DNA from: Patescibacteria group bacterium
GTDB lineage: Bacteria; Patescibacteriota; Minisyncoccia; Phycocordibacterales; UBA918
Reading direction: 5' to 3'
Assembly: GCA_038065355.1 (NCBI GenBank)
Contig: JBBTRC010000007.1
Span: forward strand, 42,333 to 106,332
DNA: 64,000 nt
A program made the position numbers and the translations under genes. Below the pieces are notes generated by a model that saw nothing but the letters and a program-made list of their open reading frames with translations, did no database searches and had not been told where the DNA came from. Below are positions 1,724 through 41,952 of the stretch, piece by piece. Within the stretch, counting starts at the first letter, position 1. Every line of letters begins with the position of its first letter.

Positions 1724-3145
1724 GTGGACGCAAAACAAGCTCTTTATCATGCCTCGGAAATGTGGCACAAATTGGCCATCCCGACGTTAGTGGAGTACAT
1801 CAAAATTCCCAACACATCTTCCGATTTCGATCCGAAGTGGAAAGAGAACGGCCACATGGATAAAGTTGTCGACCTCTTCATGACGTGGGCGAAAGATCAA
1901 CCGATTCCCGGCCTTGTTGTCGAACGGTTTGACCTGCCGGAGCGTACCCCGATTATTTTTATGGAAATTCCTCCCTCCGGGGAGGACGTCGGCACAGTCT
2001 TACTCTACGGCCACCTCGACAAACAGCCGGAAATGACCGGTTGGCGAGAGGGGCTCGGTCCGTGGCAACCGGTTCTCGAGGGAGACCGCCTCTATGGGCG
2101 TGGCGGCGCTGACGATGGCTACGCTATGTTTGCGTCGCTCATCGCGGTGCGATTGCTGCTCGAGCAAGGATTACCGCATAGCCGGATTGTGATCATCATC
2201 GAAGCCTCGGAAGAAAGCGGCAGTCCAGACTTGCCGGCGCACGTCGAAGCAATCAAAGATCGCATCGGCGATGTCGAGCTCGTCATTTGCCTTGATTCCG
2301 GTTGCGGCGACTATGAGCGGCTGTGGCAAACGACCTCACTTCGCGGCGTCTGCACCGGAGATCTCACCGTCAAAGTCTTGACGGAAGGTGTACATTCTGG
2401 CGACGCCGGCGGCATTGTCCCCGACAGCGCGCTGTTGGCTTTTTCTCAAATAATGCGGGTGTGCAGATCCACTGGTTTAATCCATCATCAAGAATTCTAT
2501 GTGGATATACCAGCGGATAGGCGAAGACAAGCCAAGGAAACAGGGGAAATATTAGGGAATGCTGTGTATGACAAATTTCCCTGGGTACCAGGCTGTCACC
2601 CTTCTTCCAGACTTGTTCCAGAAGAATTGATCCTTCGTCGCACTTGGTGCCCAACACTCACCCATATTGGTGTAGACGGATTCCCGTCTACGCTCGCTGA
2701 AGCTGGCAACGTCATGCGGCCATACACGACGCTACGACTTTCAGTGCGGACGCCGCCGACTTTGGATGCCAAAAAAGCGCTTGGCATCCTGCAACAGGTA
2801 CTTGGTAAAACTTTACCCGAAGAGACTGAGGCGCAGATCACATTCACTCCCGGCCATGCCGCGAATGGTTGGAATGCACCACCCACAGTTCCATGGCTCG
2901 AAGAAAGCATCAACGACGCTTCACTGAAATTCTTCGGAAAACCAGCGGCGGCGATGGGGGAGGGCGGGACTATTCCGTTCATGGGCATGCTAGGCGAACA
3001 GTTTCCTGAAGCCTGGTTCCTTGTCACCGGCGTGCTCGGTCGCGAATCAAACGCGCACGGTCCGAACGAGTTCTTGCACATTCCGACCGCGATCAATCTC
3101 ACGGCCTGCGTGGCGAAAGTATTGACCGACCACGCCAGTCGCTAA
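1724..3145 (+). CDS. M20 family metallopeptidase (dipeptidase, ArgE/DapE/Dug1-like)
   Basis: 473 aa. Motifs LLYGHLDKQP, GRGGADDGY and EASEESGSPDL are typical of the M20 dimetallo site. Confidence 0.8.
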   Translation: MDAKQALYHASEMWHKLAIPTLVEYIKIPNTSSDFDPKWKENGHMDKVVDLFMTWAKDQPIPGLVVERFDLPERTPIIFMEIPPSGEDVGTVLLYGHLDKQPEMTGWREGLGPWQPVLEGDRLYGRGGADDGYAMFASLIAVRLLLEQGLPHSRIVIIIEASEESGSPDLPAHVEAIKDRIGDVELVICLDSGCGDYERLWQTTSLRGVCTGDLTVKVLTEGVHSGDAGGIVPDSALLAFSQIMRVCRSTGLIHHQEFYVDIPADRRRQAKETGEILGNAVYDKFPWVPGCHPSSRLVPEELILRRTWCPTLTHIGVDGFPSTLAEAGNVMRPYTTLRLSVRTPPTLDAKKALGILQQVLGKTLPEETEAQITFTPGHAANGWNAPPTVPWLEESINDASLKFFGKPAAAMGEGGTIPFMGMLGEQFPEAWFLVTGVLGRESNAHGPNEFLHIPTAINLTACVAKVLTDHASR

Positions 3146-3166
3146 TTTGATTAGCGTCAATCGGCA

Positions 3167-3200
3167 ACCGCCGGAACCTTAGGGTTCCGGCGATTTTTTT
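3167..3200 (+). terminator. Rho-independent terminator after M20 peptidase
   Basis: 10-bp stem CGCCGGAACC/GGTTCCGGCG, TTAG loop, then ATTTTTTT. Confidence 0.65.
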
Positions 3201-3219
3201 ACGAAATTTTAGTCCGATT

Positions 3220-5244
3220 TTACAAAGGTTTTAAAAATGTCGCGGCGCTCCAGCCGTCACTGCCAGTGTCGTAATCGACCTTCCACCAAGTGTAGCCGTT
3301 TGCAGTGACTGGCCCCTCTACAAGTGTGCCACTAGCGCCTGTTGCTTGCGTCCCTGTCACACTGCCACTGGCACTACTGCGCACGTTGAGCGGCCCTAAG
3401 GCCACCACCACCCGACTATTTTGCGTGAAGGTGCTCGCCGCTGTCGGCGTGACCACTGTACTAGCGCTCGCGAGAAACGACCCGGCGCACCAGCCGTCGG
3501 GGCCGTCCTTAAAGTCGACTTTCCACCAGGTGTAGCCATTGGCTACTACCGGTCCACCGACGATAACACCTGTCGCACTGGTTGGTTGGGTTCCAAGCAC
3601 TCCGCCCCCGGCGCTGCTACGGATATTGAGCGGCCCGTCAGTCACTACCGCGCTGCTGCCGGACGAAAGTTCCGACACTGGAGTGACGGCGGGTACCGAA
3701 GTGCCGACTGAGGCAAGCGCAGTGAGTTGCGTATAAAAAGCGGCGTTTCCACTGTTCACGGCTGAATCAAGCGAATTTTTGGCCGGAAAGTTTGTCGACT
3801 TGGTGATACCGCCGAGCGCAATAATGCCGTTTTCGCTCGCGAACGAGGCGCGCGCGGAGTCTGTTCCGCCGCCGCCCACGAAGCTACCGTAGGTCACTTT
3901 GGTCAGGTCGCGATTGAGTTTGACGATAAATGCATCCGACGCTCCGCCGATACTGGTATCGAGAGCATCTTTGGTGACGGGGAAGTTAGGTGAGCCGGTG
4001 TTGCCCGAGATCACTATTTCGCCGGTCGTTTCGAGAAAGGTAGTTCCTTCGCCTTCGTCACGTTTAGTGCCGCCGACGTACGTAGAGGCGACCAACGTCC
4101 GACCGTCTGGAGAAAGCTTGGCAACGTAAGCATCTCCCGTTCCGTTGTTTGCACTTTGGAAAGTGCGTTGAAGGGCTCCTTTGGTGGTGGGAAAGTTGCT
4201 CGAGGTGGTGTAGCCAGTCACATAGGCGTAGCCGAGTGCGTCGACCGCCATTGAATGTGTTTCAAGATCTTCGACCCCAGTACCGCCGAGGTACGTCGCA
4301 TAGAGCAGTTTGCCATTTGCGTTGAATTTTGCGACGACGGTGTCAGCATTACCAGCACGTTTTGTTTGGTACGCGCCAGCGGTAACCGGAAAGTCGTCGG
4401 CATCACTCACGCTGGCGAAGTACACGTCGCCGGTTGGGGCCACCCGAATAGTTGGTTTGCCGGAGTTTTGTCCACTGCCTGAAATGTACGTTGCGTAAAG
4501 AATCTTTGTACCATCGGATGAGAGCTTGGCGTAAATAGTGTTTTGTCCGCCTGGGTGTTTCTTTTGAGCAGCATCAGCCGTAATGAATGAGACTGCGGTA
4601 CTCGATTGGCCAATCGCCAAATGAACCACGTCGTTCTTATCAATATCAATATCTCGGACTACGGTCTGGCGCGCTTCGCCAATATACGTAGACCATTTGA
4701 GCGTACCGGTCGAAGAAAATTTGGCCACAAATCCATTTTGCAAACCGTAGGCGCCGAGCGTGGAGTCGCTGTTGTTTATGAAGTTTTTTTGCGTGACTCC
4801 GGCGGTGGTGGGGAATTGTTCACCGGCTCGGCCGGCGACGTAGACATCACCATGAGGGCCGAGTTCGAGCGCATAGGCGCGATCGTAGTTTGGCCCGCCG
4901 AGGAGCGTAGACCATACTAAGTCGCCCTTCGAGTCAAATTTCATGAGGAAAACGTCCATCGGGCCGTTGGTGCCGAGGGATTTGCCACTGGTACCAAAAG
5001 TGCGGTCGTAAGCTCCGACGGTGGTCGGAAAGTCTGCCGACGCTGTACCCCCGGTTACGTAGATATTGCCTTTCGCATCAATCTCAATATCGCGTGCCTG
5101 CTCCGCGTCGGTTTTAAAGGTGCTCGTACCGTCGAGAATACTGCTACTCTTGAGCGAGTAGCTGGCCAAAGCGTGGAGCGGACTGGCGCTCATAAGAAAT
5201 GCCGTCACGAGGAGGAAAGTAGCGATATTTTTCATACTGTTCAT
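3220..5244 (-). CDS. Secreted beta-propeller repeat (SBBP-type) protein with two C-terminal SH3b-like domains
   Basis: Signal peptide MNSMKNIATFLLVTAFLMSASPLHA. Multiple repeats ending in DFPTT/NFPVT/NFPTTKGA (SBBP hallmark). C-terminus has two copies of LN(I/V)RS...GYTWWKVD(F/Y)..G.DGW, which is the SH3_3 pattern. Start trimmed from the ORF maximum (5325) to the Met preceding the signal peptide. Confidence 0.7.
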   Translation of the reverse strand: MNSMKNIATFLLVTAFLMSASPLHALASYSLKSSSILDGTSTFKTDAEQARDIEIDAKGNIYVTGGTASADFPTTVGAYDRTFGTSGKSLGTNGPMDVFLMKFDSKGDLVWSTLLGGPNYDRAYALELGPHGDVYVAGRAGEQFPTTAGVTQKNFINNSDSTLGAYGLQNGFVAKFSSTGTLKWSTYIGEARQTVVRDIDIDKNDVVHLAIGQSSTAVSFITADAAQKKHPGGQNTIYAKLSSDGTKILYATYISGSGQNSGKPTIRVAPTGDVYFASVSDADDFPVTAGAYQTKRAGNADTVVAKFNANGKLLYATYLGGTGVEDLETHSMAVDALGYAYVTGYTTSSNFPTTKGALQRTFQSANNGTGDAYVAKLSPDGRTLVASTYVGGTKRDEGEGTTFLETTGEIVISGNTGSPNFPVTKDALDTSIGGASDAFIVKLNRDLTKVTYGSFVGGGGTDSARASFASENGIIALGGITKSTNFPAKNSLDSAVNSGNAAFYTQLTALASVGTSVPAVTPVSELSSGSSAVVTDGPLNIRSSAGGGVLGTQPTSATGVIVGGPVVANGYTWWKVDFKDGPDGWCAGSFLASASTVVTPTAASTFTQNSRVVVALGPLNVRSSASGSVTGTQATGASGTLVEGPVTANGYTWWKVDYDTGSDGWSAATFLKPL

Positions 5245-8860: not shown

Positions 8861-9724
8861 CTACGAAATTGATTGTAGAAAGCGCGTGAAGTCCATTTCT
8901 TGTTTGCCAGCGGGGACAACGCGGAGGAGGCGGAGCTCGCCCGAGGGGGCGAGCTCCGCCTTTTTAATTTTTACCCGCTCGCCGTTGTAGAGAAAGTAGG
9001 CGTCACCGATTCCAAGGAGTGCATTGATGCGGCACAGTACTAGAAAGGCCGTGTCGCCAGCTGGTAGCGCGTGCGGGTTCAAATCGAGTAAAAAATCTTC
9101 CTTCGCAAATTTGCCCGTGTAGGTAGCGGCTTCATGCATTTGTTCTTGCGGCAATAGCTCACCGGCGAGCCACGCCGGCAGTGCGTCAGCGAGTAGTTCA
9201 CCACCCATTTTTGCGAGTGCACTATCAAGTTCCGGGCCGGGCACGGGCCAATTCTCGCTCGCTATTTCAAAGGGTGCTTGGTCGAGAATTGGCCCGTGGT
9301 CCATCTTCTCATCCATCAACATAATACTGATGCCGATCTCATCACGCTTGTTTTCTAAAATGGCAGTGCGGATAGGGCTTGGCCCCCGAAGTTTTGGCAA
9401 AAGCGACGGGTGTACGTTGAGCACACCGTGTTTCGGAATTTGGAGTAACCATTTCGGCAGTATGAAGTTGTACGCCACGACCACAAACACGCCCCACGCT
9501 TGTTCTGTGAGAGGAGTGAGAGCGGCTTTATCTTTGTATGAAGTCGGTTGAAATACATTAATCTGATGTGCCTCCGCCCATTCTTTTACCGGTGGCGGGG
9601 TGAGCTTTTGCCCGCGGCCGCTTGGCTTATCGGGACTGCAGACGATCAAATCCGGTTGTATATTTGCCGCCCTTAATTCTTCAAGCACAGAAACGCCAAG
9701 CGGCTCGCCGCCAAAAAAGACCAT
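8861..9724 (-). CDS. fmt: Methionyl-tRNA formyltransferase
   Basis: MVFFGG start, N-terminal formyltransferase fold with HPSLLPKLRGPSPI. Immediately downstream of def. Start trimmed from the ORF maximum 9841. Confidence 0.85.
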   Translation of the reverse strand: MVFFGGEPLGVSVLEELRAANIQPDLIVCSPDKPSGRGQKLTPPPVKEWAEAHQINVFQPTSYKDKAALTPLTEQAWGVFVVVAYNFILPKWLLQIPKHGVLNVHPSLLPKLRGPSPIRTAILENKRDEIGISIMLMDEKMDHGPILDQAPFEIASENWPVPGPELDSALAKMGGELLADALPAWLAGELLPQEQMHEAATYTGKFAKEDFLLDLNPHALPAGDTAFLVLCRINALLGIGDAYFLYNGERVKIKKAELAPSGELRLLRVVPAGKQEMDFTRFLQSIS

Positions 9725-13005: not shown

Positions 13006-13148
13006 GGGAGGGTATTATAGCAAAATCTCAACCCACCTAGAATTACTATTTTCTACGCCCACCGCCCCAACACCGCCCTCCGAAAATAGTAATTCTAGGT
13101 GGGCTGCAGTCGCAAAACTAAGTGTAACTCAATAGTGGAAGTGTAGAC

Positions 13149-14648
13149 CTAAAACTCGTCTAGGTAGGCGATTTTGGCGCCGAGCGAAGCGAGGCGCTCG
13201 ACCAGCTTTTCGTAGCCGCGGTTAATGCTGTAGATGTTGCGCAACACCGAAGTGCCGGAAGCGCCAAGCATGGCGATCAAAAGAATAGTCGCTGGCCGGA
13301 GCGCCGGCGGACAGATCAGCTCGGTGGCACGAAGTTTCGAAGGGCCGGTAATGTAGATACGGTGGGGGTCAGCTAGGACGGTCTCGGCGCCGAGTTTGTC
13401 GAGCTCGGTAAAATAGATGGCCCGTTTATCGTACATCCAGTCGTGAATCAAAGTTTGACCGGCTGCTTGAGTAGCGATGACGGCAAAAAATGGCAGGTTA
13501 TCAGCATTGATGCCGGGGTAAGGGCGCGAGTGGATTTTATCCGCCGCCGCGGTGAGTTTTGATGGCTTGGTAGTGATGTCAACCAATTTCACTTGACCAT
13601 TGGCGCCGAGGTATGGCTTTGACATGGTGTACTTGAAACCCATCTTTTTTAACGTGAGGAGTTCTAGTTCAAGAAATTCAATCGGACAGCGGGTAATGGT
13701 GATCGAAGAATTAGTCACGATGGCCGCGGTCAAAAAGAACATGCTGTCGGTCGGGTCTTCAGCCAAAGTGTACTCGATGTCTTTTTTAATCTCATCAACT
13801 CCGGTGACGGTGAGTGTGGTGGTACCGACGCCGTCAATCTGCACACCAAGCTCACGCAGGAACACGCACAGCTCCTGCACCATGTAGTTGGCTGAAGCGT
13901 ACTTAATGACAGTAGTGCCGGGGAAGCGGGCGGCGGCCATAAGCACGTTTTCGGTCACGGTGTCGCCCGATTCATAGAGTATGATTTCTTGGGGTTGTTT
14001 TTTCTTGACACTCACCTCGTAGGTGTCGTTGGTGGTTTTGATATCGACACCAAATTCTTCAAGTGCATAGAAATGCGGTCGCACCGTGCGGCTACCGAGC
14101 TTGCAGCCGCCCGACTGCGGTAACGAAAATGTTTTGAGGTGGTGGATGAGCGGCCCGATAAACATGACGATGCTGCGGGTGCGTTTGGCGGATTCGGTGT
14201 TGATGCGTGCTAGGTTAAATGTCCGTGGTGGTGTGATTGAGACAGAGCTTTTGTCCCACTCTACTCGTACGCCGATACTCTGGAGCACCTCAATCAGACG
14301 ATGCACTTCTTCGATACGCGGCATTTTATGAAGTCTCGTCGTGCCGCGATTTAAAAGAGACGCACACAGGAGGCCGACTGCGCCGTTTTTTGATGAATTT
14401 GTTTCGATGGCACCCGTCAGCGTCTGGCCGCCGTCGACACGTACGCTTACGGTACCAGGCGAGAGGGTAATGAGGTTTTTGCCGAGCGCTTTGCCGATAC
14501 GGCGGAGCATGTCGGCACTCACATTTTGCCGGCCCGACTCAATGCGGGCGACCGCGCTCTGGGTAGTTTTAATTTTTTTGGCGAGGGCGGCCTGCGTTAT
14601 CCCAAGTGTTTCTCGCACGTCCGCGATGCGGTTTCCTATGTGTGACAT
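13149..14648 (-). CDS. murA: UDP-N-acetylglucosamine 1-carboxyvinyltransferase (MurA) with fused N-terminal XRE-family HTH domain
   Basis: N-terminus LGITQAALAKKIKTTQSAVARIESGRQNVSADMLRRIGKAL is a classic Cro/C1 HTH. The body has MurA motifs SGGCKLGSRTVRPHF (active-site Cys loop) and a C-terminal RGYEKLVERLASLGAKI. Start at MSHIGNR. Confidence 0.8.
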   Translation of the reverse strand: MSHIGNRIADVRETLGITQAALAKKIKTTQSAVARIESGRQNVSADMLRRIGKALGKNLITLSPGTVSVRVDGGQTLTGAIETNSSKNGAVGLLCASLLNRGTTRLHKMPRIEEVHRLIEVLQSIGVRVEWDKSSVSITPPRTFNLARINTESAKRTRSIVMFIGPLIHHLKTFSLPQSGGCKLGSRTVRPHFYALEEFGVDIKTTNDTYEVSVKKKQPQEIILYESGDTVTENVLMAAARFPGTTVIKYASANYMVQELCVFLRELGVQIDGVGTTTLTVTGVDEIKKDIEYTLAEDPTDSMFFLTAAIVTNSSITITRCPIEFLELELLTLKKMGFKYTMSKPYLGANGQVKLVDITTKPSKLTAAADKIHSRPYPGINADNLPFFAVIATQAAGQTLIHDWMYDKRAIYFTELDKLGAETVLADPHRIYITGPSKLRATELICPPALRPATILLIAMLGASGTSVLRNIYSINRGYEKLVERLASLGAKIAYLDEF

Positions 14649-14656
14649 GAGCAATA

Positions 14657-14676
14657 GCATAGCATATGCGCTATGC
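14657..14676. promoter_or_regulatory. Inverted repeat GCATAGC-n6-GCTATGC (contains palindrome GCATATGC), a candidate operator 9-28 nt upstream of the HTH-MurA start
   Basis: 7-bp perfect arms, overlapping 8-bp palindrome. Position and the fused HTH suggest autoregulation. Confidence 0.35.
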
Positions 14677-14697
14677 GTGGAAGAAACTGTGAAATAC

Positions 14698-14726
14698 TTG
14701 ACAATTAACCTTGAGTGTGATATTAT
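14698..14726 (+). promoter_or_regulatory. Strong sigma-70-like promoter TTGACA-17-TGnTATTAT (extended -10)
   Basis: Consensus -35, 17-nt spacer, TGA-TATTAT extended -10. Confidence 0.55.
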
Positions 14727-14751
14727 GAAGAGAGTCAACAAGAGGTGCGAC

Positions 14752-14907
14752 ATGAAGATTATTTTTAAAGTTCTGCGCGGTATCTGCAGGTTCTTGATTC
14801 TGGCCCTGACGCAGGACCCTTACGCCGAAGTTCGGCGTATAGGTCTGCTCGGCATGCTCGAGGAGCGTCGTCAGAATCCGGCCGCTTTCGCCCATGAGGG
14901 ATGCTAG
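14752..14907 (+). CDS. Small protein (51 aa) in a self-contained promoter/SD/terminator module. Alternatively a ~230-nt sRNA
   Basis: SD AAGAGGTG 4 nt before the ATG. Sequence MKIIFKVLRGICRFLILALTQDPYAEVRRIGLLGMLEERRQNPAAFAHEGC. Terminator follows at 14931. Confidence 0.35.
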   Translation: MKIIFKVLRGICRFLILALTQDPYAEVRRIGLLGMLEERRQNPAAFAHEGC

Positions 14908-14930
14908 ACCGCCGTGTTGACACAATAGGT

Positions 14931-14968
14931 GCCCGAACTTCCGTAAGGAGGTTCGGGCACTATTTTTT
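14931..14968 (+). terminator. Rho-independent terminator
   Basis: Stem GCCCGAAC(TTCC)/(GGAG)GTTCGGGC followed by ACTATTTTTT. Confidence 0.6.
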
Positions 14969-15017
14969 ACCCTCAATTTCCTCTATTTTCTTTAATGCAG
15001 TACTATGATGCTACTGT

Positions 15018-16031
15018 ATGTTTGGTAGCTTTACTCCTAAAGTCGGAATTGATCTTGGTACTACCAATATTTTGGTGTTTGTTCCTGGTCAAGGCATTGT
15101 ATTAAATGAACCGTCGGTGGTGGCCATCTCCGACAACAATCAAGTGCTGGCGGTCGGCACGGAAGCGAAGCTTATGATTGGCCGCACCCCTGACACTATA
15201 CGTGCGTACCGCCCCATGCGTGACGGCGTGATTGCCGACTACCGCGTGACGGAGACAATGCTCCGTTACTTTCTCCGCAAATCCATGAGCAAATACAGTC
15301 TGTTCAAACCAGACGTGATGGTGTCGGTGCCGGCCGGTGTAACCTCGACCGAACGGCGGGCGGTCATCGAAGCGGCCATCAAAGCCGGCGCTAAAAACGC
15401 CTACGTGGTGAAAGAGCCGATTTTGGCCGCCATTGGCGCCGGTGTCCCCATTTATGAGCCGCAGGGACACATGATCGTCGACATCGGCGGGGGTACGATT
15501 GACGTGGCGGTGATTTCGCTTGGCGGCATTGTCGCCGCCAACTCGGTGAAGTGTGCGGGCAACCGCATTGATGCGGCCATCATCGACTACATCAAAAAAT
15601 CCCGCAACCTCTCAGTCGGCGAAAAGACCGCTGAAGAAATCAAAATCCAGATTGGTTCGGCCTTGCCGGTTGAGGAAGAATTAACGATGGACATAAAAGG
15701 ACGGGACGTGTTGTCCGGTTTGCCGCGCACCACCGAACTGAAGACAAATGAAGTAGTGCGCGCAATCAGCCGCGAACTGCGAGAAATGGTCAAAGCCATC
15801 AAAGACGTTTTTCAAGAAACGCCGCCCGAGCTCGCCGCCGACATCATCGATGGCGGCATCATCATGACCGGCGGCACATCGCAACTGCGCAATTTTCCCG
15901 AGCTCATTCGCCGCCGCACCGGCGTGAAAGCGGTGGTGGCTGATCAGGCGCTTTTTTGTGTCGCCAAAGGTACCGGCATTGCGCTTGAACACCTTGATGT
16001 CTACAAACGCGCCGTGTTCGCCAAGAAGTAA
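15018..16031 (+). CDS. mreB: Rod shape-determining protein MreB (solitary paralog, Mbl/MreBH-like position)
   Basis: VGIDLGTTNILVFV...NEPSVVAI, phosphate-1/2 and adenosine motifs of actin-fold MreB, 337 aa. Confidence 0.85.
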   Translation: MFGSFTPKVGIDLGTTNILVFVPGQGIVLNEPSVVAISDNNQVLAVGTEAKLMIGRTPDTIRAYRPMRDGVIADYRVTETMLRYFLRKSMSKYSLFKPDVMVSVPAGVTSTERRAVIEAAIKAGAKNAYVVKEPILAAIGAGVPIYEPQGHMIVDIGGGTIDVAVISLGGIVAANSVKCAGNRIDAAIIDYIKKSRNLSVGEKTAEEIKIQIGSALPVEEELTMDIKGRDVLSGLPRTTELKTNEVVRAISRELREMVKAIKDVFQETPPELAADIIDGGIIMTGGTSQLRNFPELIRRRTGVKAVVADQALFCVAKGTGIALEHLDVYKRAVFAKK

Positions 16032-39784: not shown

Positions 39785-39859
39785 TGGTGACCCTACCGGG
39801 AATCGAACCCGGGTTTCCAGGATGAGAACCTGGCGTCCTAGCCGCTAGACGATAGGGCC
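39785..39859 (-). tRNA. tRNA-Glu (anticodon CUC)
   Basis: Reverse complement folds as a cloverleaf: acceptor GGCCCTA/TAGGGTC, D-stem GTCT/GGAC, anticodon stem CCAGG/CCTGG with loop TTCTCAT, T-arm CCGGG-TTCGATT-CCCGG, 3' ACCA encoded. Confidence 0.85.
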
Positions 39860-40063: not shown

Positions 40064-41911
40064 CTAGTTTGTCTTACGGATTGACTCTTTAATGTCAAAA
40101 CGTGGGTTGACCTTTTTGCCAGGATTGAAGATATCGTCGGGGTCGAAGATGTGCTCAGTTTTTTTGAAAATTTCCAACATGTGCGCGCTAAACATCTTGC
40201 TCAAGTGAGGAGTGCGGATAATGCCGTCGTTGTGTTCACCGCAAATGTTGCCGCCAAATTTGATGGCCGTGTTGAAAAAAACGTCGGCCATTTTTTCAAT
40301 CAACGCTGGAGTCGTTTTGTTGGTGAAATCAAGAAGAGGATAGAAGTGGAAGTGGCCATTGCCGCCGTGTCCATGTATGGCCGACTGGACGTTAAATTCT
40401 TTGAAATGACGCTTCACCTGGGCAAAAAACTTGGAAAGATTTTCCGGCGGTACTGTCATGTCCTCCAAGAAAGCGGCCGGTCGCTTTGTCTTGTCCAAAA
40501 GCTTGGATAGAGAAAAGCTGGCGCGGCGCACTTGCCAGAGCATTTCGGCTTCGTACTGATTCTTCACAACCCGCGCCCGGCCGCCTTTCGCGCTGATGCT
40601 TTTGGCGATAGTGACGGCCGGGGTCTTGGTCGTGGTCTCTTCGTCGAGCGTAATGAGGATGGTGAATTCTGGTACTTTGCCGCCGAAGCGGACGTGGTAG
40701 GTGGTATACATTGAGAACATCACCCGGTAGTACTCGGAACGCTTAATGCGGGCTTTGAAGAAGTCGGGATTTTTGAGGGCGAGTTCATAGGTGAGCGAGT
40801 CGAAAATCTCGATGTTGATAGGATTGTGCTCGAGTGCCTTTACAATCACACTGGCGGCATCGGACAGATCAAAAATAGGCACTACAATGAGCGAGGTATT
40901 TTTCTGAATCGGCAGTGCTCGCAAGGTGAGGTGCGTGATGATGCCGATAGTGCCTTGGCTACCGGAGAAAAGACGGGTGAGGTCAAACACTCCTTTGCCT
41001 TTCTTGAAAGCCTCAACGCCATTGGGCAAGACGTGCCAGAGCGAATACCCGGAAGAATTTTTTGGTGTCGGCGGCTGGCTCTTCTTTATTTCCACTTCGT
41101 TTTTGTTGATGAGTTCAAAAATCTCCCGTGCAATCCGCGCGTGTTCATGATCTTGTTTGATAAGGAGTTTAAATTCGCGGTAGGTAATGGGCTTGATGGT
41201 GTAGGTGTTGCCGTCTTTGAGCACCACATCAAGCGACTCAACCCAGTCGGCACAGTGGCCATAACGAAGCGAGTCCGGACCGGCGGCATTGTTGGCAATG
41301 GAGCCACCGATACTGCAGATATCTTTTGAAGAGGTATAAGGCGGGAGGTAGGCTTGGTGAGCCTTGAGTTTCTTTTCAACATCGCGCCACATGGCCCCGG
41401 GTTCGCAGGTGAAAATAATCTTTCCTTTCTTCTCAATCACTTCGCCGATGTGAGTGAGGTGCGCACAGACGTCGATCACAATTGAGTCGGTGAGTGAGCC
41501 ACCCGAAAGCCCAGTGCCGGCTGCCCGGGGGGTGAGTGAAAGGGAAGAGAAGCGTTTGGTTTCGCGCGCAATCACCCTGGTGGCGATTTCTACGTCGTGC
41601 CTGTTCTTAGGTTGGATCACCACTTGCGGGCGAATGCTAAAAATACTCTCGTCGGTACTGTAGGTGTCAAGTAATTTTTTGTCACTAGAAATGCCGCCGC
41701 GAAAGCCGCTCTCCCGCAGCATTTTTTCTATCAACAAATGACCAAGCGGGTTGCGCTTAAAGCCGTCGGTTACCGAAACGGCTTTCGCGGCGCGTTTTGC
41801 CTCGGCCATTTGTGTCGACGGCGAAATTACTTTTCGCTTGGCGCTTTTGCGCGTTTTTGGCTTCGGTTTAACCACAGTCATTACCTCCGAGGAACTCGTT
41901 TCCATTACCAT
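40064..41911 (-). CDS. FAD-linked oxidase (GlcD / D-lactate dehydrogenase-like) with basic N-terminal extension
   Basis: FAD-binding PCMH region ...TPRAAGTGLSGGSL... and C-terminal HGHGGNGHFHF ... GGNICGEHNDG typical of the FAD-oxidase_C domain. Confidence 0.8.
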   Translation of the reverse strand: MVMETSSSEVMTVVKPKPKTRKSAKRKVISPSTQMAEAKRAAKAVSVTDGFKRNPLGHLLIEKMLRESGFRGGISSDKKLLDTYSTDESIFSIRPQVVIQPKNRHDVEIATRVIARETKRFSSLSLTPRAAGTGLSGGSLTDSIVIDVCAHLTHIGEVIEKKGKIIFTCEPGAMWRDVEKKLKAHQAYLPPYTSSKDICSIGGSIANNAAGPDSLRYGHCADWVESLDVVLKDGNTYTIKPITYREFKLLIKQDHEHARIAREIFELINKNEVEIKKSQPPTPKNSSGYSLWHVLPNGVEAFKKGKGVFDLTRLFSGSQGTIGIITHLTLRALPIQKNTSLIVVPIFDLSDAASVIVKALEHNPINIEIFDSLTYELALKNPDFFKARIKRSEYYRVMFSMYTTYHVRFGGKVPEFTILITLDEETTTKTPAVTIAKSISAKGGRARVVKNQYEAEMLWQVRRASFSLSKLLDKTKRPAAFLEDMTVPPENLSKFFAQVKRHFKEFNVQSAIHGHGGNGHFHFYPLLDFTNKTTPALIEKMADVFFNTAIKFGGNICGEHNDGIIRTPHLSKMFSAHMLEIFKKTEHIFDPDDIFNPGKKVNPRFDIKESIRKTN

Positions 41912-41952
41912 AAGTATAGCAAGACTGGTCTTTTAATGTGCTGGCTTTCCAC

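Follow-up and report, generated by a model that had tools for sequence, protein, structure and literature searches.

The window examined here is a stretch of 64,000 nucleotides from a Patescibacteria group bacterium (GenBank assembly GCA_038065355.1, contig JBBTRC010000007.1, positions 42,333 to 106,332 of the forward strand). Its minus strand carries a gene, here called HTH-murA, whose product begins with a helix-turn-helix (HTH) domain of the XRE or Cro/C1 type and continues into MurA (UDP-N-acetylglucosamine (UDP-GlcNAc) enolpyruvyl transferase), the fosfomycin target and the entry gate of cell-wall synthesis. The gene is flanked by priA and the divergent mreB, and a palindrome stands immediately upstream of its start codon (Table 1). 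The in-frame fusion is real, conserved and, as judged from the residues it encodes, catalytically intact. Comparison with related loci supports a role of the palindrome as the operator of the fused HTH.

The fused HTH-murA gene

The longest minus-strand open reading frame (ORF) in the window ORF list spans 13149 to 14753 and would encode 534 aa. A majority of the 120 closest homologues measure 499 aa, and their starts coincide with the ATG at 14648. We therefore set the start codon there; the 105-nt upstream extension of the longer ORF would traverse the promoter and the palindrome. In the numbering of the 534-aa ORF, Pfam HTH_3 (PF01381) matched residues 43-94 with 49 bits (cutoff 23), and EPSP_synthase (PF00275) matched residues 106-521 with 156 bits over profile positions 1-417, that is, at full length. 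The isolated HTH segment matched HTH_3 with an E-value of 1.6e-13, and the PF01381 score was 49-51 bits across both scans. An AlphaFold2 (AF2) model of the HTH-MurA monomer had a mean predicted local distance difference test (pLDDT) value of 86.5 and showed the HTH as a separate helical domain with helices at residues 4-15, 19-25, 30-38 and 45-55; the predicted recognition helix is TTQSAVARIE (residues 28-37). The closest solved relatives of this domain include the 434 repressor (E = 3e-5) and a HigA-like antidote protein. The domain junction was the least confident part of the model, with pLDDT below 50 at residues 61-64, and in the sequence comparison it aligned with the C-terminal 'LEIRF' tail of small antitoxin-type HTH proteins.

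The MurA part of the model matched solved MurAs (5ujs, 1uae and others) with E-values down to 3e-40 and target-normalised template modelling (TM) scores of about 0.9. The protein scored 321.4 bits against NCBIfam NF006873 (MurA subfamily PRK09369), above the cutoff of 297, and 215 against NF009470, below the cutoff of 552. In E. coli numbering, the catalytic residues of MurA are Lys22/Asn23, the Cys115 loop, Arg120, Asp305, Arg371 and Arg397. Alignment to the solved MurAs paired Cys182 of the fusion with E. coli Cys115 and Arg187 with Arg120. Seven residues (K87, N88, C182, R187, D383, R451 and R477), which align with the K22/N23, C115, R120, D305, R371 and R397 motifs, are invariant in 30 fusions, and the RGYE motif is among the catalytic residues kept in the window MurA. 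Invariant residues are also numerous in the HTH of these 30 fusions.

A protein from a Patescibacteria-group metagenome-assembled genome (P0001) is 100% identical to the window protein. Both PF00275 and PF01381 were present in 120 of the 120 best homologues (78-100% identity), which derive from NCBI, JGI, ENA, Logan and Tara assemblies and carry the labels Patescibacteria, Parcubacteria, Paceibacteria, Kaiserbacteria and Nomurabacteria; the source databases annotate them simply as MurA. By scanning one genome per GTDB species, we recovered full-length fusions, in a continuous reading frame, from 27 further species, and no stop or frameshift between the HTH and MurA was found in these 27 genomes and the window. 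Differences in the first 65 codons among 13 species numbered 191, 108 and 500 at codon positions 1, 2 and 3, respectively. This third-position bias indicates translation of the HTH and purifying selection on it. The initial annotation had described a Cro/C1-type HTH fused in frame to a complete MurA with the Cys loop SGGCKLGSRTV, and had raised the concern that the true start might lie downstream of the HTH. The paired Pfam domains of all best homologues, the full-length PF00275 match and the invariant catalytic residues bear out the description, the codon-position bias answers the concern, and the fusion proved to be distributed over the 27 further species and over clusters with as little as 31% identity.

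The palindrome and its conservation

The initial annotation had also reported a 7-bp inverted repeat with a 6-nt spacer 9-28 nt before the ATG and had suggested autoregulation through it. Read on the plus strand, the repeat lies where it was described, and the window has a single copy of it. On its own it is weak evidence: 7+7 inverted repeats with at most 3 mismatches gave 5 matches in the window against 2.2 expected, which is not significant. Its position held in the cross-species comparison, whereas the conserved element turned out to be the core ATAGC-N6-GCTAT and not the full 7+7 repeat.

The right half-site overlaps a predicted extended -10 element. The -10 hexamer of the window, TATGCT (14656-14661), lies 7 nt ahead of the ATG, and a Shine-Dalgarno sequence is absent. 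Since the -10 ends this close to the ATG without a Shine-Dalgarno sequence, a leaderless or near-leaderless HTH-murA mRNA is implied. An automatic promoter scan returned no minus-strand promoter for murA, and the -10 was assigned from the cross-species register: other loci have TGcTATA(A/C/G/T)T in the same register (pattern T-R-T-G-c-TATAnT), with an ATGACA -35 18 nt upstream in several. The palindrome was also considered as a known RNA element and this was rejected, Rfam giving no match to it. Rfam searches of the whole window at gathering thresholds, and of 14500-15150 by E-value, yielded only a tRNA-Glu (39788-39859; placed at 39785-39859 by ARAGORN) and a meaningless rivX match.

We compared 28 full-length loci, namely the 27 GTDB species and the window, with 4.5-11 kb per locus. 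Each of the 28 loci contained ATAGC-N6-GCTAT exactly once, in the interval that separates the fusion gene from the divergent mreB. From the end of the site to the start codon there were 10-35 nt in 27 loci; in L012 the site lay about 120 nt upstream. The perfect 18-mer TATAGCATATATGCTATA is its most frequent form; in the window, spacer positions 1 and 2 are GC in place of AT. The flanking intergenic DNA carried about 0.3 bits per position and the 6-nt spacer 1.56 bits, and the 60 nt upstream of the fusion showed 77% ungapped mismatch among 13 species. The half-site score of 2.0 bits is circular, as the pattern itself served to anchor the alignment, and the weight was placed on the site count, the position, and the unanchored flanks and spacer. 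In L001 (2964-2999), the operator is lengthened to a perfect 36-bp palindrome, GACAGACAC-TATAGCATATATGCTATA-GTGTCTGTC.

Two loci without an intact HTH also lack the site. L025 encodes a non-fused MurA (63% identity) with mreB still nearby, and has neither HTH nor palindrome; in L038, the N-terminus of a 44%-identical fusion no longer scores as an HTH, and the palindrome is absent. Where the HTH is intact in more distant fusions (31-54% identity), a 16-bp palindrome is retained at the promoter of the fusion gene itself or of its operon. The half-site changes in these distant fusions are symmetric or near-symmetric, mostly to ATATC-N6-GATAT (Table 1). Such symmetric change is explained by a protein dimer and not by a one-sided promoter element. 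The retention of the site in 28 of 28 loci, its absence from L025 and L038, its symmetric variants and its association with related XRE genes (see below) give the suggested autoregulation computational support, and the palindrome appears to behave as the cognate operator of the fusion HTH.

Some further observations concern the same loci. We considered whether half-site specificity is set by the residue before the recognition-helix Gln (T/K for ATAGC, S for ATATC), and dropped this rule on P0137, in which TSQ accompanies ATAAC...GCTAT. In L025, two unrelated minus-strand ORFs are inserted between the MurA gene (2896-4314) and mreB, and the stretch ATAAGCGCATATCC upstream of the MurA gene may be a decayed remnant of a window-type operator (ATAGCGCATATGCTAT).

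Related HTH genes, deeper fusion clades and the surrounding DNA

Metagenome contigs were scanned for the exact 18-mer TATAGCATATATGCTATA, which gave at least 120 sites (L041-L160), and related XRE genes were sought within 1.5 kb of each site with a hidden Markov model (HMM) of the fusion N-terminus. Among the 120 sites listed, HTH-MurA loci accounted for 9, and an XRE-HTH ORF lay within 1.5 kb at 78. When only the fully flanked sites among those listed were counted (700 nt or more on each side), 40 of 55 had an XRE-HTH ORF, compared with 1 of 64 control windows from the same contigs. Conversely, 78 of the 79 HTH matches in 674 kb adjoin the palindrome, again among the sites listed. Many listed sites front two-gene operons in which a Gp49/HigB-like toxin gene (PF05973, 78-87 bits) is followed by a gene for an HTH_3 protein of about 90-100 aa, and the palindrome there fills the spacer and the -10 of a TTGACT-17-TATAnT promoter. 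Other listed sites front solo HTH genes of about 93 aa. Examples of such loci are L094 (palindrome at 9006-9023), L131, L079, L087 and L043; L118 and L120 contain two copies of the 18-mer, 33 nt apart in L120. Identity between the metagenome HTHs and the fusion HTH reaches about 56% over about 52 residues, and both have TxQSxxxRxExG.

The HigA antitoxins of these Gp49/HigB operons thus resemble the fusion in having the identical 18-bp palindrome over the -10 of their own operon and a similar leaderless or short-leader geometry. They differ from it by an N-terminal extension of about 30 residues, which the fusion does not have, and the fusion carries the 434-residue enzyme at its C-terminus instead. 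M. tuberculosis HigA1 (Rv1956) has been reported to bind the sequence ATATAGG(N)6CCTATAT and to repress its own locus (PMC8669151); the TATAG half-site and the N6 layout recur in the site of the fusion. Literature searches with the motif as a literal string returned no description of the 16-mer core. The Gp49 toxin genes were found in the metagenome loci only, and the window has no toxin gene next to the fusion, its neighbours being priA, mreB and a 51-aa ORF. The shared 18-mer, the related XRE genes and the HigA1-like site point to the HTH as an autorepressor module of the antitoxin type. Judged by these comparisons, the fusion HTH is related to an antitoxin, or derived from one, and is not itself an antitoxin. 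It looks like a domesticated HigA-type module, which would have arrived with its operator and without the antitoxin N-terminal extension and the toxin.

The wider family comprises at least ten full-length fusion clusters (representatives at 50% clustering), down to 31% identity. The Cys loop and the RGYE arginine are lost in seven (P0131, P0133, P0137, P0143, P0145, P0232 and P0239), and several Cys-less fusions keep the K/N and Asp305-equivalent positions. Three Cys-less fusions are located within cell-wall clusters, each divergently oriented to a separate murA of 438-452 aa (L034, L162 and L164; Table 1). In all three loci the palindrome falls within the shared promoter region of 25-85 nt, and ddl and/or Mur-ligase genes follow on the fusion side. 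The distant fusions are not adjacent to mreB. The Cys-less paralogues look like pseudoenzymes and are likely to be regulators devoted to the cell wall, with a sensor derived from MurA; their place beside a true murA points to a possible use of the MurA fold for sensing ligands. Because these fusions share palindromic promoters with cell-wall genes, a regulatory role of the HTH-MurA architecture seems hard to doubt.

In the window, an insert separates the operator from mreB. It contains a near-consensus promoter (TTGACA-17-TATTAT with TG, 14698-14726) followed by a GAGGTG Shine-Dalgarno sequence, the 51-aa ORF (14752-14907, MKIIFKVLRGICRF...), a hairpin with a 9-bp stem near 14815-14845 and a terminator with a 15-bp stem (14928-14961). 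For the 51-aa ORF and the insert, the fetched loci held no homologue and Rfam gave no match. Given that the insert has no counterpart in the fetched loci, it and its ORF do not seem to be part of the conserved system. Since mreB lies 340 nt away, behind this promoter-ORF-terminator unit, it is probably not controlled by the operator in the window organism. The mreB gene has no Shine-Dalgarno sequence, and TACTAT lies 11 nt before its ATG at 15018 (14997-15020, plus strand). The minus-strand ORF at 40064..41911 has TGCTATACT directly upstream (41913-41921). Transcripts with no leader, or with a very short one, may be common in this genome. Between the murA stop and priA, on the minus strand, a perfect 22-bp inverted repeat (CCCACCTAGAATTACTATTTTC ... 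GAAAATAGTAATTCTAGGTGGG, 28-nt loop, 13032-13103) is followed by TGCTATAAT (13014-13022) and, after 7 nt, by the priA ATG (13005). This arrangement looks like a terminator or insulator together with a second leaderless extended -10 promoter.

Table 1. Features of the HTH-murA locus, with site variants and Cys-less fusions from distant loci. Positions refer to the window unless a locus is named.
Feature	Position	Strand	Description	Basis
HTH-murA coding sequence	13149..14648	-	499 aa and TAG stop	ORF list, Pfam, NCBIfam, homologue lengths
XRE/Cro-C1-type HTH domain	14469..14648	-	residues 1-60	HTH_3, AF2 helices, codon bias, invariant residues
Domain junction GKNLITLSPG	14454..14483	-	residues 56-65	AF2 low confidence, alignment with small HTH proteins
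Complete MurA domain	13152..14453	-	residues 66-499, 434 residues	structure and sequence match
Catalytic loop SGGCKLGSRTV	14082..14114	-	Cys182 at 14103-14105	aligns with GGCAIGQRP / GGCAIGSRP of solved MurAs
Candidate operator, 20-bp palindrome GCATAGC-ATATGC-GCTATGC	14657..14676	.	conserved core ATAGC-N6-GCTAT at 14659-14674
Predicted extended -10 of the HTH-murA promoter (TG-C-TATGCT)	14656..14664	-	overlaps right half-site	sequence reading, cross-species register
Insert of ~290 nt between operator and mreB	14680-14965	+	absent from 27 related species
mreB, divergent neighbour	15018..16031	+	divergent in 28/28 fusion loci
Site variant ATATCATATATGATAT	L034 and L164		distant fusions
Site variant ATATCAGATATGATAT	L040		distant fusion
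Site variant ATATCATATAGGATAT	L039		distant fusion, ahead of NUDIX - nucleotidyltransferase - fusion operon
Site variant ATAACATATATGCTAT	L162		distant fusion
Site variant ATCTCATATGTGAGAT	L037		distant fusion, GC-rich; symmetric, unlike a -10
Cys-less HTH-'MurA'	L034 3001-4503		divergent murA then murB	ATATCATATATGATAT in shared promoter
Cys-less HTH-'MurA'	L162 4001-5530		divergent murA then murB	ATAACATATATGCTAT in shared promoter
Cys-less HTH-'MurA'	L164 3498-5003		divergent 164-aa gene - Mur ligase - murA operon	ATATCATATATGATAT in shared promoter

Interpretation and comparison with known systems

We consider it probable that HTH-MurA is a bifunctional enzyme-repressor, in which an active housekeeping MurA is joined to a HigA-type XRE HTH and exerts negative feedback on its own gene. 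The C-terminal 434 residues would be the active MurA and the N-terminal ~60 residues the XRE HTH. In a dimer, the two HTHs would bind the half-sites ATAGC and GCTAT, whose centres are 11 bp, or one helical turn, apart. As the site overlaps the extended -10, the effect should be repression rather than activation. Because the right half-site lies in the extended -10 and the transcript is predicted to begin at or next to the ATG, the bound protein would cover the -10 and the start site, occlude RNA polymerase and repress the leaderless transcript. In this way MurA would adjust its own production, and the first committed step of peptidoglycan synthesis would be under negative autoregulation. Since non-fused murA is also linked to mreB (L025 and L028), the fused gene is, by its position, the housekeeping murA of the lineage.

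Several points weigh against this interpretation. The case for DNA binding is made by comparative genomics. E. coli MurA has been described as a monomer, and the AF2 model, being that of a monomer, is silent on dimerisation. The score against the TIGR01072 equivalog was 311, below the cutoff of 392.7, and the canonical 'DLR' Asp (Asp369) is Ala449 (13302-13304) in PPALRP, which is invariant in the 30 fusions. The search for a second murA, which found none, covered the 64-kb window, and another copy may lie elsewhere in the genome. In addition, TGCTATAAT precedes priA without a left half-site; the right half-site is a generic extended -10, and part of its conservation would thus be promoter conservation. 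Beyond the main reading, ligand-induced closure of MurA (with UDP-GlcNAc, phosphoenolpyruvate or UDP-N-acetylmuramic acid (UDP-MurNAc)) might modulate DNA binding and let transcription follow flux. This step is speculative and we hold it tentatively; it gains some weight in the active clade because the Cys-less clades suggest a sensor role.

Some of these points favour other explanations. The palindrome could be a symmetric promoter only, with two extended -10 boxes set back to back (TGCTATA on either strand) for the divergent murA and mreB, and the HTH could have a different role. Besides the resemblance of the right half to an extended -10 and the recurrence of that sequence at priA, the divergent position of mreB in 28 of 28 loci agrees with this, as does the greater conservation of the spacer positions by the right half (T.TG) than of the mirror positions. 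However, the generic promoters of the window lack the left half-site, the window mreB is set apart by the inserted unit, and the toxin-antitoxin operons are one-directional and place the left half between the -35 and the -10, where sequence is free. Furthermore, the motif is tied to HTH genes in the metagenome contigs and not to the control windows, it is gone where the HTH has been lost (L025 and L038), and in GC-rich L037 it stays symmetric, unlike a -10. We regard a mere promoter as unlikely. A protein that is mainly a transcription factor, with its MurA domain as a sensor of little or no catalysis and a conventional murA elsewhere, would account for the loss of the Cys loop in seven deeper fusion clades, three of them beside a separate murA, for the TIGR01072 score and for the substitution of the DLR Asp. 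Nevertheless, all checked catalytic residues but that Asp are invariant, at an overall identity of 78-84%, and the Ala of PPALRP is shared by the non-fused Patescibacteria relatives P0122, P0123, P0125 and P0136, so the change from DLR to ALR belongs to the lineage and was not brought about by the fusion. The gene also occupies the murA-mreB position held by non-fused murA in L025 and L028, and a second murA was absent from the 7.5-kb loci of the 27 fusion species as well as from the window. The probability of this explanation is small in our estimate.

The XRE-like HTH of RodZ binds MreB, and the fused HTH could likewise be a protein-protein module that tethers MurA to MreB filaments and does not bind DNA. 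The strict linkage of murA and mreB in all 28 loci would fit this, but the linkage also occurs without the HTH and so does not explain it, and the distant fusions are not beside mreB. The HTH matched HTH_3, HTH_31 and HTH_19, with no Pfam HTH_25 match at E <= 0.01, and it runs directly into MurA, whereas an HTH_25 domain followed by a transmembrane segment is found in the RodZ type. The conserved cognate palindrome would be left without explanation, and we think a RodZ-like role very improbable. An artefact, whether by frameshift, misassembly or a wrong start that would separate the HTH from MurA, is effectively refuted by the occurrence of the same architecture and 499-aa length in hundreds of independent assemblies from all five sources (NCBI, JGI, ENA, Logan and Tara), by the continuous frame in 27 species and by the third-position substitution bias in the HTH.

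A self-repressing MurA, if true, would represent a new way of achieving cell-wall homeostasis, and it occurs in tiny-genome organisms with very few regulators. It would also exemplify the recruitment of an antitoxin module, HTH and operator together, for an essential housekeeping gene. Beyond the enzyme-repressor itself, Patescibacteria might hold a family of one-component peptidoglycan regulators built on the MurA fold, with the active clade as a ligand-gated enzyme-repressor and the deeper clades as pseudoenzyme sensors that control murA-murB, ddl and Mur-ligase genes from a shared divergent promoter; we offer this wider scheme as a possibility, with somewhat less than even confidence. A series from active enzyme-repressor to pseudoenzyme-regulator would show how sensor domains can arise from enzymes. 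HTH-MurA and the TATAGCATATATGCTATA-type site form a defined protein/DNA pair that is testable in vitro although the hosts are uncultivated.

Conventional MurAs (E. coli and E. cloacae; PDB 1uae and 5ujs) share the fold and the catalytic motifs with the fusion. The solved chains (411-454 residues) have no HTH, whereas the fusion adds a 65-residue N-terminal HTH and linker and has 'ALR' for 'DLR'. The known control of MurA is post-translational, by UDP-MurNAc inhibition and, in Firmicutes, by ReoM/ClpCP proteolysis, and is not self-transcriptional. We know of no DNA-binding form of MurA. Literature searches on MurA with HTH, Patescibacteria and trigger enzymes returned no description of the HTH-MurA fusion or its operator, in agreement with the statement of the initial annotation that a DNA-binding domain on MurA has no characterised precedent.

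The DNA-binding part has closer parallels. Like the fusion, the 434 repressor/Cro and the C proteins of restriction-modification systems combine a small XRE HTH with a palindrome over their own promoter, the half-sites being one helical turn apart. C-protein transcripts are often leaderless. The fusion differs from these regulators in that no phage or restriction-modification genes surround it and its HTH is covalently joined to an enzyme. Such joining is known from BirA (biotin ligase with an HTH), NadR (an XRE-type HTH with NMN (nicotinamide mononucleotide) adenylyltransferase/ribosylnicotinamide kinase) and PutA (a ribbon-helix-helix domain with proline dehydrogenase). Archaeal RbkR joins a riboflavin kinase to an HTH (PMC5397151). 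In all of these, as in HTH-MurA, an N-terminal DNA-binding domain and a pathway enzyme form one chain, and the operator, still a candidate in HTH-MurA, lies at the promoter of the protein's own gene or of the pathway. The feedback logic of these trigger enzymes would be shared by HTH-MurA, which is set apart by apparent self-regulation only, one site per locus and an HTH of the antitoxin type. The regulatory logic is thus already known from BirA, NadR, PutA and RbkR, and it is for MurA as the enzyme partner that no parallel was found in the literature searches.

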